A stretch of 43,621 nt of DNA from an uncultured Bacillota bacterium (GCA_949282465.1 CASDPM010000108.1:1-43621); one strand, 5' to 3'; counted from the first letter of the stretch, positions 12,279 to 43,328 are shown. The notes: generated by a model not told the origin, from the sequence alone. Program-made: numbers and translations.

Positions 12279-12509
12279 TTATTCTTTTATATAACCGATA
12301 TTCTGGTCTTTTGAAGAATCGAAAGTTAAATTACATATTGATGCTACAAGGCTATAAATTCCAAACGTTATCATTGAAAGGAAGAAATAAGCAAGACTCC
12401 TAGACCTAAACCCATTTGGTTTTAAACTTGTATGATTAATTATAACACTCCCAATCCACCCCAAGAAAAAAGTAAGTAAAAAACGAACTAAATTATTATT
12501 GTCTTCCAT
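12279..12509 (-). CDS. small hypothetical membrane protein (76 aa from internal start)
   Basis: The track ORF 12279..12593 is over-extended. The ATG at 12509 is preceded by AAAGGAGAC. The product MEDNNNLVRFLLTFFLGWIGSVIINH...FFLSMITFGIYSLVASI has two hydrophobic helices. Confidence 0.6.
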   Translation of the reverse strand: MEDNNNLVRFLLTFFLGWIGSVIINHTSLKPNGFRSRSLAYFFLSMITFGIYSLVASICNLTFDSSKDQNIGYIKE

Positions 12510-12743
12510 CTTAACAAGTCTCCTTTTGTATAAAAAATGCGCCAACCGAAGTCGACGCACCGAAAAACGCAAACTCCGATTGTCGCCAAACAAATTTCAA
12601 GCATACGAAAGGATACCCTAACACAATAACCTGATGGAATTTGCGATTTTACCAAATTCATATAGTTATTGTGTATAACAAAAGAAAGAATAATCCTTTA
12701 TAAAAGAAAATATCCCCGCATTTGCTTATAAAATTTGTTTGGC
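12510..12743 (-). promoter_or_regulatory. long structured 5' leader with terminator/attenuator (candidate cis-regulatory RNA, class unknown)
   Basis: On the minus strand, GCCAAACAAATTT (12743-12731) pairs perfectly with AAATTTGTTTGGC (12597-12585). Nested helices are ACACAATAAC/GTTATTGTGT and GAATTTG/CAAATTC. A GUGCG-U-CGAC-UUCG-GUUG-G-CGCAU hairpin plus U6 (12560-12533) lies just before the SD. Confidence 0.5.
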
Positions 12744-12749
12744 ACAATT

Positions 12750-12778
12750 ATTATAGCAAAAATATATCGCTTTATCAA
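12750..12778 (-). promoter_or_regulatory. sigma-A type promoter for the structured leader / small membrane protein gene
   Basis: Minus strand TTGATA (12778-12773), 17 nt, TATAAT (12755-12750). Confidence 0.6.
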
Positions 12779-12789
12779 TTATTTTATAT

Positions 12790-12818
12790 AAAAAAATCTC
12801 GACTTGTTATAAGCCGAG
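12790..12818 (-). terminator. intrinsic terminator after mazF
   Basis: Minus strand CTCGGCTT-ATAAC-AAGTCGAG (one G-U pair), followed by ATTTTTTT. Confidence 0.65.
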
Positions 12819-12862
12819 TTTAACACATTGTTTTTTGCCATTTAAAAAACTTAGTAACACTT

Positions 12863-13231
12863 TTACATACTCTTTGCGCCGTTCATAAGATCTCCAAAAC
12901 CCAAACTGATTAAAAGCGCAGTATTAACTTTTCGCATCGTTACGGGCGATAACTCGCCGATACGTTCTTTAAGTCTTCTTTTGTCAAGCGTTCTAATTTG
13001 CTCTAAAAGTATTACCGAATCTTTCACAAGCCCAACTTCATTTGCACCTATCTCTATATGGGTCGGTAATTTCGCCTTGTTAAGTCGGCTTGTAATTGCC
13101 GCCGCTATTATCGTCGGACTGTATTTATTACCCGTATCGTTCTGAACGATCAGTATAGGGCGTATTCCACCCTGTTCACTACCTATCACAGGGCTTAAAT
13201 CAGCATAATATAATTCTCCTCTTTTAATCAT
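12863..13231 (-). CDS. mazF: MazF/PemK-family endoribonuclease toxin, EndoA (NdoA) type
   Basis: [61 protein letters not shown]...[16 protein letters not shown] is closely collinear with my recollection of B. subtilis EndoA. The ATG at 13231 is preceded by GGAGAC. The track start at 13267 is probably an over-extension. Confidence 0.9.
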
Positions 13232-13367
13232 AATGTCTCCGACGTATCCGATATTCCCCATTACCATTTTATGTATTTTTGCATTTATGGGTTACAAGAT
13301 ACTTTAATATGATTTTTCCCCTTGACGATTATTTTATACACTAATTTATTTTTTGCCCCTTCTATAA

Positions 13368-13396
13368 TTGACACCGTTTTACTTTTGTAGTAAAAT
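13368..13396 (+). promoter_or_regulatory. sigma-A promoter driving the tRNA-Arg(CCU) composite transcript
   Basis: TTGACA (13368-13373), 17 nt, TAAAAT (13391-13396). Confidence 0.65.
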
Positions 13397-13424
13397 ATCT
13401 TTACGAAATAATTTGTAATTATTT

Positions 13425-13468
13425 ATAAATTCTCAACCAACTACATATAAATTCTCAACCAACTACAT
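13425..13468 (+). repeat. 22-bp direct tandem repeat ATAAATTCTCAACCAACTACAT x2
   Basis: Exact copies at 13425-13446 and 13447-13468. The 3' part (AACCAACTACAT) is also the start of each 112-nt unit. Confidence 0.9.
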
Positions 13469-13680
13469 TTTGGTTCCATAGTTAAACGGATATGTCGGAC
13501 AAGCCGACGGCGTTCGCAATCATTGATTGCTCGGCTAAACACTTGTTATCTCCGTTTAACTTTAACCTAACCAACTACATTTTGGTTCCATAGTTAAACG
13601 GATATGTCGGACAAGCCGACGGCGGTCGCAATCTTTGATTGCTCGGCTAAACACTTGTTATCTCCGTTTAACTTTAACCT
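13457..13680 (+). repeat. two 112-nt tandem units (110/112 identical), each made of the tRNA-Arg 5' segment plus a fold-back hairpin
   Basis: Units span 13457-13568 and 13569-13680. They differ only at 13513/13625 and 13522/13634. A third unit start (13681) runs into the real tRNA. Confidence 0.95.
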
Positions 13681-13695
13681 AACCAACTACATTTT

Positions 13696-13770
13696 GGTTC
13701 CATAGTTAAACGGATATAACAAGCCCCTCCTAAGGGCTAGTTCGGGGTTCGATTCCCTGTGGGACCGCCA
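13696..13770 (+). tRNA. tRNA-Arg (anticodon CCT), CCA encoded
   Basis: Manual cloverleaf: acceptor GGTTCCA/TGGGACC, D arm GTTA-AACGGATA-TAAC, anticodon arm AGCCC-CTCCTAA-GGGCT, variable AGTT, T arm CGGGG-TTCGATT-CCCTG, discriminator G, CCA. 75 nt. Confidence 0.85.
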
Positions 13771-13792
13771 AAAAAGTTTTCTTTGACCCCAT

Positions 13793-13882
13793 CGGGGTTC
13801 GATCACATAGCGGTGGACCGCAACCCTTTTGTTGCAAAAGCAACATTTCCCCTATTAGGGGAATCACCCTGTGGGTACGCCA
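13793..13882 (+). repeat. element X copy 1: 90-nt tRNA-3'-end-derived structured segment
   Basis: CGGGGTTCGAT + 63-nt insert (hairpins GCGG-TGGA-CCGC, GTTGC-AAAA-GCAAC, TTCCCC-TATTA-GGGGAA) + CCCTGTGGGTACGCCA. 85/90 identical to 32883-32972. Confidence 0.9.
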
Positions 13883-13883
13883 A

Positions 13884-13913
13884 AGACCACAAGATATTGT
13901 GGTCTTTTTTTTT
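13884..13913 (+). terminator. intrinsic terminator ending the tRNA-Arg / element X transcript
   Basis: AGACCACAA-GATA-TTGTGGTCT followed by T9. Confidence 0.85.
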
Positions 13914-13952
13914 ATTTTTGACTGTATATTGATTACGTTTAGCGTTTTACAT

Positions 13953-14177
13953 TTATACTTCATTTATACTTTCTGTTTTTTTACTGCTTTTCTTACGTTT
14001 TAATCTTCTAATTTTATAGTTTGTTTTTCTAAAAAATTCTTCTATAACGATTTCAAGCTGATAATAGTTGATTATCCATCTATTTCCATAATTATAAGTA
14101 AATACTCGTTTGTCTTTCAGAAAACGTTCTACGGTGTGTTTATCAATGATTTGACTAAACCGTCTACGTTTGTTGTT
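13953..14177 (-). pseudogene. 5'-truncated excisionase/MerR-like HTH (Xis-type) gene remnant
   Basis: A 74-codon open frame bounded upstream by TGA, with no ATG/GTG/TTG: NNKRRRFSQIIDKHTVERFLKDKRVFTYNYGNRWIINYYQLEIVIEEFF...; the G-x-RW-I...LE pattern is typical of phage/ICE excisionase-type HTH proteins. It abuts palindromic repeat A. Confidence 0.5.
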
Positions 14178-32984: not shown

Positions 32985-33062
32985 TCAGTCCGTTCGTTAC
33001 CGGTGGATTAGCGGAAATAACCGCAGTGGAGCGAATAGATTTTTAGCCGACCACCTGGGCAG
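32985..33062 (+). ncRNA. ZTP (pfl motif) riboswitch aptamer upstream of pflB
   Basis: The 3' signature CCGACCACCTGGGCA matches the ZTP consensus CCGACCGCCUGGGCA. The upstream ACCGGTGGA supplies a complementary GGTGG for the pseudoknot. GGAGCGAA closes P1 against GTTCG. The P2 hairpin is GCGG-AAATAA-CCGC. The genomic context (pfl) is the one that gave the motif its name. Confidence 0.75.
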
Positions 33063-33133
33063 AACGTATGGGTTTTGTTCGGGTTTTTTTGTACTATTTT
33101 GATAAAAATATACTATAAAAGGAGATATAGAAT

Positions 33134-42809: not shown

Positions 42810-42883
<74 letters not shown>

Positions 42884-42916
42884 AACGCATCTATTTCGGG
42901 ACGTATAAAGGCTTAT

Positions 42917-42993
42917 GCACCTGTAGCTCAGTTGGATAGAGCATCGGCCTTCTAAGCCGAGGGTCAGGGGTTCGAATCCCTTCAGGCGCACCA
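42917..42993 (+). tRNA. tRNA-Arg (anticodon TCT)
   Basis: GCACCTG TA GCTC-AGTTGGATA-GAGC, anticodon arm TCGGC-CTTCTAA-GCCGA, T arm AGGGG-TTCGAAT-CCCTT, CAGGCGC A CCA. 77 nt. Confidence 0.9.
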
Positions 42994-42999
42994 TTTCAT

Positions 43000-43077
43000 G
43001 GCGGGCGTAGCTCAGTTGGTTAGAGCGCAAGATTGTGGTCCTTGAGGTCGTGGGTTCGATTCCCATCACCCGCCCCA
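43000..43077 (+). tRNA. tRNA-His (anticodon GTG) with encoded G-1
   Basis: G-1 can pair with discriminator C73. Anticodon arm CAAGA-TTGTGGT-CCTTG, T arm GTGGG-TTCGATT-CCCAT, CCA. Confidence 0.9.
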
Positions 43078-43087
43078 TTATAAATCT

Positions 43088-43162
43088 AGGGGTGTAGCCA
43101 AGCGGTAAGGCACTGGATTTTGATTCCAGCATTCGTAGGTTCAAATCCTGCCACCCCTGCCA
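43088..43162 (+). tRNA. tRNA-Gln (anticodon TTG)
   Basis: AGGGGTG/CACCCCT acceptor, anticodon arm CTGGA-TTTTGAT-TCCAG, T arm GTAGG-TTCAAAT-CCTGC, G CCA. 75 nt. Confidence 0.9.
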
Positions 43163-43170
43163 AACCTTAA

Positions 43171-43246
43171 GTACCTTTAGCTCAGTTGGTAGAGCAACTG
43201 ACTCTTAATCAGTGGGTCCAGGGTTCGAGTCCCTGAAGGTGCACCA
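43171..43246 (+). tRNA. tRNA-Lys (anticodon CTT)
   Basis: GTACCTT/AAGGTGC acceptor, anticodon arm ACTGA-CTCTTAA-TCAGT, T arm CAGGG-TTCGAGT-CCCTG, A CCA. 76 nt. Confidence 0.9.
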
Positions 43247-43252
43247 ATAAAT

Positions 43253-43328
43253 GATTCATTAGCTCAGCCGGTAGAGCACGTGACTTTTAATCACGGTGTC
43301 CGGGGTTCGATTCCCCGATGGATCACCA
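43253..43328 (+). tRNA. tRNA-Lys (anticodon TTT)
   Basis: GATTCAT/ATGGATC acceptor, anticodon arm CGTGA-CTTTTAA-TCACG, T arm CGGGG-TTCGATT-CCCCG, A CCA. 76 nt. Confidence 0.9.

Follow-up and report, generated by a model that had tools for sequence, protein, structure and literature searches.

Transcription and general turnover are usually regarded as the determinants of tRNA levels in bacteria. The spacers of tRNA operons can give rise to regulatory RNAs, such as the 3'ETS-leuZ sponge of E. coli. Furthermore, some archaeal tRNA genes, for example in Nanoarchaeum, are split or permuted, their halves being assembled into a functional tRNA with a splicing endonuclease; a related model of tRNA gene disruption is presented in PMC3293823. 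The T-boxes and attenuators, which are frequent in Firmicutes, are 5' leader RNAs related to tRNAs that form mutually exclusive helices. The T-boxes bind tRNA in trans, through specifier-anticodon and T-box bulge-NCCA contacts, and control the terminator or the ribosome-binding site of an mRNA. Two other systems combine repeats with tRNA genes or toxin genes. The attL and attR sites of elements integrated in tRNA genes normally copy the 3' part of the gene and flank kilobases of cargo including an integrase. The type III ToxI RNAs are tandem repeats of 36 nt, carried by the toxin strand directly upstream from genes of endoribonuclease toxins of the ToxN/AbiQ family. Lastly, a synthetic theophylline-dependent RNase P riboswitch was shown to control pre-tRNA processing in vivo in E. 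coli (Nucleic Acids Res 2021, PMC7897497). This device is man-made, relies on a known aptamer and sequesters the single-stranded leader by the cleavage site rather than the tRNA body. Our search of open-access texts for a natural control of tRNA maturation by alternative pairing found engineered examples only.

The locus reported here belongs to an uncultured Bacillota bacterium. The window, i.e. the whole stretch of DNA that was analysed, is an entire metagenomic contig of 43,621 bases in which a tRNA-Arg(CCU) gene is preceded by two copies of a structured unit. Each unit combines a mimic of the 5' half of the tRNA with an antisense arm directed against it. By analogy, the engineered RNase P riboswitch can be regarded as nearest in principle, since in both cases a structure of the pre-tRNA 5' leader would gate maturation through alternative pairing. 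However, the element considered here is natural, would mask nt 10-29 of the tRNA, uses a mimic of the tRNA as competing strand and displays no ligand match. Unlike in T-boxes, the product that would be regulated is the tRNA itself, in cis. As in archaeal split tRNAs, a separate 5' piece is joined to an extra sequence complementary to the tRNA system, but the host is a bacterium, a complete tRNA gene follows and the complementarity would mask rather than assemble. The direct repeats of a tRNA segment around an insert recall attL and attR, and the locus is a proven integration hotspot; here, however, the repeated segment is the 5' part plus the leader, and it encloses a structured insert of 75 nt, always the same, with covarying stems.

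The comparison with ToxI comes from the tandem RNA repeats found beside an endoribonuclease toxin gene, which encodes a PemK/MazF protein (PF02452) on the opposite strand, without any protein antitoxin gene. However, this PemK/MazF gene is usually divergent, the repeat is single in relatives, and MazF and unit are separable. An antitoxin RNA of type III-like nature directed against MazF was therefore rejected: the orientation is wrong, 14 mazF loci lack the unit and two unit-bearing loci (L003 and L033) lack mazF. Globally, leader RNAs with mutually exclusive pairings are known, and what is new here is the folding of the tRNA itself as their putative output.

Organization of the tRNA-Arg(CCU) locus

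Tandem Repeats Finder detects a repeat with a period of 112 nt (2.3 copies, 98% matches) at positions 13457-13717, on the plus strand like all the features listed below unless otherwise stated. The 37-mer AACCAACTACATTTTGGTTCCATAGTTAAACGGATAT, which consists of 15 nt of leader followed by GGTTCCATAGTTAAACGGATAT (the mimic of tRNA nt 1-22), occurs exactly three times, with starts at 13457, 13569 and 13681 and a spacing of 112 nt. The first two exact repeats (13457-13493 and 13569-13605) carry a copy of the leader and the mimic, whereas the third (13681-13717) corresponds to the true 5' leader and to nt 1-22 of the tRNA. The two 112-nt tandem units that a preliminary description, drawn from the sequence alone, had placed in front of the tRNA are thus confirmed by both approaches. 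Its proposal that only the third copy is a tRNA also holds, as ARAGORN and Rfam call a tRNA-Arg(CCT) at 13696-13770 alone (59.7 bits with the Rfam tRNA model), with an encoded CCA. The units themselves contain only nt 1-28 of the tRNA and are called neither as tRNA nor as pseudo-tRNA with E up to 10.

Covariance models delimit unit 1 at 13472-13567 (97.8 and 97 bits) and unit 2 at 13584-13679 (96.2 and 95.2 bits). In unit 1, the mimic of tRNA nt 1-22 (13472-13493) is followed by the P2 hairpin (13494-13508), the sequence GGCGTTC (13509-13515), the P3 hairpin (13516-13530), TCGGC (13531-13535), a second piece of mimic, TAAACA, that corresponds to tRNA nt 23-28 (13536-13541), and finally the antisense arm CTTGTTATCTCCGTTTAACT (13542-13561). 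The antisense arm of unit 2 (13654-13673) ends 22 nt 5' of the tRNA. As defined by inverted repeats, the target of both arms in the tRNA is nt 10-29 (13705-13724). The two units are 98% identical. As previously proposed, they differ at two positions, both predicted to be unpaired: T at 13513 versus G at 13625 in an internal loop, and A at 13522 versus T at 13634 in an apical loop. The T found at 13513 is invariant across 19 other units, so that the change observed in unit 2 is unusual.

A sigma-70-type promoter (TTGACA, 17-nt spacer, TAAAAT; 11/12 matches to the consensus) lies at 13368-13396 and would drive the expression of the units and of the tRNA, while a strong intrinsic terminator with an 11-bp stem and a U run (called at 13882-13907, the annotated feature reaching 13916) would end the transcription unit. 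The positions of these signals agree with the earlier view that both bracket the region and support the inclusion of the units in the transcription unit of the tRNA. In five related loci (L001, L004, L005, L036 and L055), the equivalent position is occupied by a promoter of this type, often ...TGTAGTAAAAT. In the leader that precedes unit 1, a 22-nt sequence, TATAAATTCTCAACCAACTACA, is repeated in tandem (two copies, 13424-13468); this duplication is specific to the window, the closest relative (L036) carrying a single copy. Neither of the two small ORFs that overlap the locus, at 13730-13963 on the minus strand and at 13759-13932 on the plus strand, could be assigned to a family.

Out of the seven tRNA genes of the window, only the tRNA-Arg(CCU) gene has such copies, and covariance models found no further unit copy in the window outside its leader. 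Downstream from the tRNA, element X (13786-13884) is a copy of the tRNA 3' part (CGGGGTTCGAT ... CCCTGTGGGTACGCCA, identified as direct repeats) that is split by about 59 nt for which three hairpins are predicted. Homologs with 83% identity are found 3' of the equivalent tRNA in L065 and L067. As element X is missing from most of the unit-bearing loci, it is a separate module that lies outside the conserved leader unit.

Distribution and copy number in relatives

A scan of a genome collection with the first 22 nt of the tRNA as query retrieved five loci from metagenome-assembled genomes (MAGs) of Clostridia and Christensenellaceae from the ruminant and human gut, each with one homologous element of about 95 nt 5' of the tRNA. 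Scanning metagenomes with the core pattern gave 30 matches, of which 29 are chance matches in high-GC unrelated DNA and only one is real; this locus (L033) carries a tRNA-Arg(CCU) of differing sequence. As the divergent MazF/PemK neighbour is syntenic, further loci were gathered from it; exact-sequence look-ups of the MazF of the window, with either start codon, found none, and homologs were therefore used. The 79 loci fetched were scored with covariance models built from units.

Units are present in 24 loci including the window and correspond to 20 distinct sequences, 18 of which were found beyond the window, in 23 related loci. They score 74-107 bits on the tRNA strand versus about 22 bits on the opposite strand. 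Every unit of the related loci is single, lies on the same strand as the tRNA, follows a conserved promoter and is located 20-60 nt 5' of the tRNA-Arg(CCU) gene or of its 5' remnant. From these sequences, the clade that bears the element appears to consist of uncultured gut Clostridia that are Christensenellaceae-like. The element is thus conserved in relatives with its pairing preserved, and is not unique to one assembly. It is also accessory and dispensable, since in 14 related loci mazF adjoins the tRNA, or a truncated 5' remnant of it, and no unit is present. Furthermore, some strains devoid of unit encode a MazF identical to that of unit-bearing ones (L046 versus L043, L065 versus L067). 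In seven distinct types of unit-bearing loci (11 loci), an intact unit precedes a tRNA gene destroyed by an insertion. The unit was found neither in phage and plasmid collections, where BLAST matched the tRNA itself, nor in the viral contigs scanned, and, within the window and the 79 fetched loci, the covariance models found copies only at tRNA-Arg(CCU). The units possess the inverted arms of a miniature inverted-repeat element (MITE) but, being confined to this single site in the sequences scanned, do not behave as a dispersed repeat.

The tandem arrangement, which had been presented as a feature of the element, is not shared: all relatives have one copy, including L036, whose MazF and upstream DNA are respectively 97% and 94% identical to those of the window. 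It is highly improbable, however, that the second copy (the point concerns copy number only) is an assembly artefact, i.e. a bubble between two strains written as a tandem. This would fit with the metagenomic origin of the contig, with the single copy of all relatives and with the occurrence of just two differing sites, as between strain alleles. Nevertheless, the unit-to-unit junction (...TTTAACCTAACCAACTACATTTTGGTTCC...ATATGTCGG) can exist only in a true tandem and, as it is longer than the 37-nt repeat, would probably not be invented by assemblers using k above about 40. In addition, length variants of the region are found in independent assemblies (L056 and L046), and a second duplication of slippage type, the 22-nt one, adjoins.

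Within a genome, the copy of the leader (8-30 nt) and nt 1-22 are identical before the unit and before the tRNA, but they differ between genomes. The resulting direct repeats, 37 nt long in the window, reach 30-50 nt in relatives. Several length variants are associated with them: L046 shares its MazF protein and its flanks with L043 but is shorter by exactly one repeat plus the insert, the comparison of L065 with L067 reveals the same precise loss, L056 carries an additional partial 5' arm and the window has two units besides its 22-nt duplication. Since recombination between direct repeats can add or remove units, the second copy of the window most likely results from unequal recombination between the 37-nt repeats; the tandem arrangement is incidental and inessential to the design of the element.

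The same rearrangements could suggest that the whole unit is a DNA-level product of recombination, left at a tRNA gene that serves as an integration hotspot. According to this hypothesis, the unit would be a miniature remnant, devoid of any RNA function, of an integrative element whose att site carried the tRNA leader plus nt 1-22; flanked by the resulting direct repeats, it would have been spread or kept by linkage. Besides the intragenomic identity of the repeats, the precise losses (L046, L065), the partial duplication (L056) and the tandem duplication of the window, this hypothesis accounts for the 3'-end copies found downstream, such as element X, and agrees with the fact that the anticodon loop of tRNA-Arg(CCU) is struck by elements that supply a replacement tRNA. 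However, the direct repeats of a tRNA segment are the only hallmark of an att scar encountered here. The insert is always the same and always about 75 nt long, no larger element, variable cargo or integrase lies between the repeats, and no copy was detected elsewhere in the window or in phages or plasmids. The folding data presented below bear on the same hypothesis, which we consider quite unlikely as an explanation of the unit as a whole.

Fold of the unit and pairing of its antisense arm

Both units contain the inverted repeat AGTTAAACGGATAT / ATCTCCGTTTAACT; the number of such arm-gap-arm patterns that chance alone would produce in the window is 0.00. Furthermore, each of them folds better than 200/200 shuffled sequences (z = -3.7 and -4.2). 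That the units copy the 5' part of the tRNA and fold back on this copy was therefore correctly recognized in the preliminary description. The fold conserved across relatives is, however, not the single long irregular hairpin that had been envisaged, as three of its five helices fail in relatives. Indeed, the ACAAG/CTTGT and GCCGA/TCGGC helices are not conserved, while the closing helix GGTT/AACC does no better than shuffled tails. Likewise, the similarity to the tRNA through ACAAGCC is present in the window but only there; L036 has GCGAG. Pairing of the P2 loop (ACAAG) with CTTGT in a pseudoknot was also discarded, P2 loops being variable (GCGAG, GCAAG, UUAAU, AUAAA).

RNAalifold predicts from 20 units a four-way junction that comprises P1, P2, P3 with its extension and P4. 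In P1, the 3' arm is the partner of the tRNA-like nt 10-19(22). P2 follows the pattern GUCGnn-loop-nnCGAC and P3 the pattern GCnnn-loop-nnnGC; the latter stands on a short invariant GGCG/CGGC extension that is accompanied by a UUC/U internal loop. In P4, which stacks on P1 because the 3' strand is continuous, AAC(A/G)(G) faces (C)(U/C)GUU. From 5' to 3', a unit therefore reads as the leader copy, the mimic of nt 1-22, P2, GGCGUUC, P3, UCGGC(A/U)A, the mimic of nt 23-28, a loop of 3-4 nt and the antisense of tRNA nt 29-10. In this model, it can be described as a long hairpin between the tRNA 5' half and its antisense, the sense strand being interrupted by a conserved P2-P3 domain. In the closed unit, the part of the mimic that corresponds to the D arm (nt 9/10-22) is base-paired; the universal D-loop nucleotides of tRNA are retained.

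In the alignment of 20 units, 91.9% of the cells are paired in the four-way structure and 10 pairs are changed on both sides, the sequences forming only about four or five lineages, so that the compensatory events that are independent are few. None of the 500 shuffled alignments (0/500) is as good, and only 29-43% of the cells are paired in slid alignments. P2 and P3 are kept through differing sequences, and P2, P3 and P4 all show compensatory changes. By contrast, the junction nucleotides GGCGTTCGC and GCTCGGC are invariant in the 20 units, while spacers and leaders diverge completely. The unit is thus very probably a conserved and selected structured RNA element. Both observations argue against a mere recombination scar: pairing maintained through differing sequences points to the folding of a single strand rather than to DNA recognized by a protein, and the junction stays invariant where spacers and leaders do not. 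The transcribed strand is not identified by the counts of G-U versus A-C cells alone (13 versus 17), but it can be deduced from the promoter, the orientation of the tRNA and the covariance-model scores (97 versus 22 bits).

No Rfam 15 family corresponds to the unit within 13300-14000 with E up to 10, the best non-tRNA matches being microRNA models with 21.7 bits (gathering score 79). The same search found neither a T-box sequence nor a Stem I, and the junction matches none of the known aptamer families of Rfam. No terminator-like site was found between the unit and the tRNA, and an intrinsic terminator after the unit was rejected because of its inconsistent U runs.

The 3' arm is also 95% complementary to a 20-nt segment of the real tRNA (CTTGTTATCTCCGTTTAACT against AGTTAAACGGATATAACAAG), a match longer than that with its own 5' arm: the pairing of the antisense arm with the tRNA exceeds its pairing within the unit by 3-6 nt. 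Alignment of each unit with nt 1-36 of the tRNA that it precedes yielded 19 unit-tRNA pairs. For the 20 pairs of the arm-to-tRNA helix, 88.4% of the cells are paired and five pairs are changed on both sides. The arm covaries with tRNA nt 24-29. Thus, for nt 24-28, the combination of tRNA AACAA, arm (C)UUGUU and mimic AAACA (window, L036, L067, L004, L005) is replaced by AACAG, CUGU(U/C) and AACAG in L043-45 and L055, by AACGG, CCGUU and AACGG in L070, L073, L076 and L079, and by AAUAA, AUUAU and AAAUAA in L033. In addition, C or U at tRNA nt 16 is matched by G or A in the arm in 19/19 sequences, with no broken pair. Since tRNA nt 23-29 lie outside the direct repeat, homogenization of the repeats does not explain this agreement, and the covariation with nucleotides external to the repeats also weighs against the unit being a by-product of integration.

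The cells in which mimic and tRNA differ allow both partners to be compared. Among these 14 cells, the arm pairs with the tRNA in 12 (10 Watson-Crick pairs) but with the mimic in only 6 (1 Watson-Crick pair). In the lineage of the window, CUU of the arm (13542-13544) has a partner in the tRNA only. The complementarity between arm and tRNA is therefore more than coincidence, and the early suggestion that the 3' arm could take the real tRNA as its partner in place of its own 5' arm is well supported. The arm is nevertheless never a perfect complement in the 19 pairs, each lineage displaying one or two mismatches opposite GGAUAUAAC.

Two other potential contacts with the tRNA were considered. A T-box-like pairing of GGCG with the tRNA 3' end (CGCC) was discarded, as the tRNAs of L033 and L041 end with ...GUACCA and their units yet keep GGCG; compared with the window, this invariant GGCG shows no covariation with either the discriminator or the acceptor end. 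The extra complementarity of GGCGGTC in unit 2 with GACCGCC results from its private T-to-G change.

A candidate switch of tRNA maturation

These comparative data on arm and tRNA make a cis-acting conformational switch, controlling the folding and processing of the tRNA, the best-supported reading, which we give about an even chance of being correct. The unit would be a structured element of the 5' leader of the tRNA-Arg(CCU) precursor. The sense side of its long helix (P1 plus P4) would be provided by the split mimic, nt 1-22 and nt 23-28 with P2-P3 between them, and the opposite side by the continuous 20-nt antisense arm against tRNA nt 29-10. As the arm is transcribed before the tRNA, it would first pair with the mimic; in this closed state, nothing would prevent the tRNA from folding and then undergoing RNase P cleavage. 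Should the closed state fail to persist, the arm would move to its identical but longer target in the tRNA, leading to the loss of the D arm and of part of the anticodon stem. In this open state, the 5' end of the freed mimic would capture the 3' acceptor strand of the tRNA, which would fail to mature or be degraded; the trapped tRNA may also face double-strand-specific cleavage. The invariant junction (GGCGTTCGC, GCTCGGC) could be the site where a ligand, a protein or a physical cue biases the choice, a role of sensor that is possible. That the switch operates in cells, its trigger and the nucleases acting on each state are all inferred.

Constrained folding of ten loci gives the open state an advantage of -1 to -15 kcal/mol over the closed unit plus cloverleaf, but nearest-neighbour energies ignore the tertiary structure and the modifications of tRNA and therefore overestimate the stability of the open state; as folding models undervalue the cloverleaf, the real energies of the two states are likely closer. 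When increasing prefixes of the precursor are folded, the unit is closed until the first ~30 nt of the tRNA emerge. After the 5' half of the tRNA, the optimum flips in L036 and remains closed in L043. For the precursor of the window with its two units, the predicted optimum is a register shift, with arm 1 on mimic 2 and arm 2 on the tRNA, the 5' end of the first mimic pairing with the 3' acceptor strand of the tRNA. Arm-to-mimic and arm-to-tRNA pairings are both conserved and have close predicted energies, and these models support a kinetically set, bistable design. The identity of the leader copy and of nt 1-9 is not needed by such a switch, which points to recombination at the DNA level as a co-acting force.

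The unit could also be a constitutive aid to the folding or stability of the tRNA without any switching, acting either as a shield against the 5'-3' exonuclease RNase J or as a chaperone that would briefly hold the weak D arm of the tRNA and then release it. Indeed, the tRNA alone is predicted to prefer a non-cloverleaf hairpin, its D stem contains one G-C pair and its acceptor stem a G-U pair, closure of the unit always precedes the emergence of the tRNA and no ligand-like family was matched. A protective hairpin, however, would require neither a mimic, nor an antisense arm that tracks the tRNA, nor an invariant junction. In addition, 10-70 nt precede the unit, which is therefore not at the 5' end of the transcript, and related strains lack it. 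A purely constitutive role thus has a low probability, about the same as that of the recombination by-product discussed above.

The unit might instead be cut from the precursor as a stable small RNA, RNase P setting its 3' boundary, and act in trans, the pairing in cis being incidental. As a decoy or sponge, such an RNA could capture a protein or toxin recognizing the 5' half or the D arm of tRNA-Arg; it could also be antisense to tRNA-Arg fragments. The four-way junction forms a compact, conserved fold that closes by itself and retains the universal D-loop nucleotides, and intact units outlast the tRNAs disrupted by insertions; moreover, the orphan MazF endoribonuclease gene is the usual neighbour and spacer-derived regulatory RNAs of tRNA operons are known. 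Nevertheless, the D-arm part of the mimic is paired and not displayed in the closed unit, a free-standing RNA needs neither the extra reach of 3-6 nt of the arm nor its tracking of the tRNA, and MazF and unit occur without each other, as mentioned above for the loci devoid of unit and for L003 and L033. An action in trans is consequently unlikely, although it deserves somewhat more credit than the recombination by-product.

A switch in cis would have a testable design made of three parts, the mimic, the junction and the antisense arm, for which natural variants are sufficient to guide mutagenesis. As the four-way junction with its covarying stems has the character of the conserved structured sensor domain that is expected from riboswitches, the element could, more tentatively, be a natural riboswitch-like device, the first to act on a tRNA and not on an mRNA, that gates the maturation of the rare AGG-decoding tRNA-Arg(CCU), its junction deciding whether the antisense remains on the mimic or invades the nascent tRNA. 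We regard this stronger proposal as possible but doubtful. The element would open a new class of output for RNA switches and would provide synthetic biology with a compact natural part for the control of tRNAs, for example suppressor tRNAs.

For the bacteria that carry it, the locus shows how direct repeats inside a functional RNA can drive changes in copy number and how integrative elements turn a rare tRNA gene into their battleground. If the riboswitch-like proposal is true, the cell could tune the translation of its AGG-containing genes in the manner of bldA, and, in this context of mobile elements and defence islands, the tRNA might be denied to invading elements.

A mazF gene beside tRNA-Arg(CCU) and UACAU sites in the leader

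A MazF/PemK toxin gene (12863-13231, - strand), whose product closely matches MazF of S. aureus and EndoA of B. subtilis (E about 1e-45), lies beside tRNA-Arg(CCU). The gene is also present in all the loci gathered through MazF homologs (L036-L079), and in these and the window tRNA-Arg(CCU) is its constant neighbour. The two genes are mostly divergent and have the same direction in L041 and L063. Neither in the window nor in some 40 related loci does a mazE antitoxin gene adjoin mazF.

UACAU is the site cut by the MazF of B. subtilis and of S. aureus. In the window, this motif occurs at 13442, 13464, 13576 and 13688, and each G+1, i.e. the first nucleotide of the tRNA or of a mimic of its 5' half in the leader units, has a UACAU 4 nt upstream. 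In seven other loci (L055, L056, L067, L070, L073, L076 and L079), UACAU (GUUACAUCC) falls within the antisense arm, the 3' strand of the unit, in the arm's internal loop. The motif is not universal.

Modules downstream of tRNA-Arg(CCU) and other RNA features

Element X, located 3' of the tRNA (13786-13884, + strand), is a copy of the 3' part of this tRNA in which the T loop carries an insertion of about 59 nt. It is conserved (83% over 90 nt) 3' of the same tRNA type in L065 (1434-1520, -) and L067 (154-240, -). Its fold, as predicted by RNAalifold from only two independent sequences, is a cloverleaf-like junction ending in ...ACCGCCA, with a compensatory change in one hairpin. Element X could be either a remnant of the attR type or a second RNA resembling a tRNA.

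Another motif, GGTTCGGCTYTGCCAYC(GTAGCRAAG), absent from the window, recurs 60-80 nt 3' of tRNA-Arg(CCU) in L004 (3014-3030, -), L044 (2006-2022, -), L063 (1828-1844, +), L064 (105-121, +) and L065 (1608-1624, -); in L065 it sits in a module terminating in another tRNA-like 3' end (…GGGAGTACCA).

Elsewhere in the window, a ZMP/ZTP riboswitch (32986-33067, +; Rfam RF01750, 46.7 bits) was identified, as well as a cluster of six tRNAs (Gly-TCC, Arg-TCT, His, Gln, Lys-CTT and Lys-TTT; 42810-43328, +), none of them preceded by a mimic or antisense leader. A small membrane-protein ORF (12507-12279) follows a region (12508-12860, -) that comprises a promoter-like site and about 250 nt of leader, including a terminator-like hairpin; as it has no Rfam match, the leader may be a cis-regulatory one not yet characterised.

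Foreign DNA inserted in the host tRNA-Arg(CCU)

In L001 (6128-6402), L002, L037, L046, L055, L059-L062, L070, L073, L076 and L079, the host tRNA-Arg(CCU) is interrupted 3' of the anticodon loop (CCTCCTAAGG). Within 170-300 nt of the break, the foreign DNA brings another, complete tRNA-Arg(CCU), which differs from the host copy and is served by a separate promoter. ACGCTnTATCC is common to the junctions. Defence genes were found in the vicinity, for ApeA-HEPN (L037), SIR2 (L055, L073) and restriction-modification (L050). The foreign DNA has the appearance of a family of integrative elements, which destroy a tRNA and bring its replacement.

Numerous independent assemblies (L045-L048, L056-L058, L061-L062, L064, L068-L072 and L074-L079) break off no more than a few hundred bases upstream of mazF, in or close to the stretch that holds the unit and the tRNA, a pattern that fits structural variation between strains at this place.
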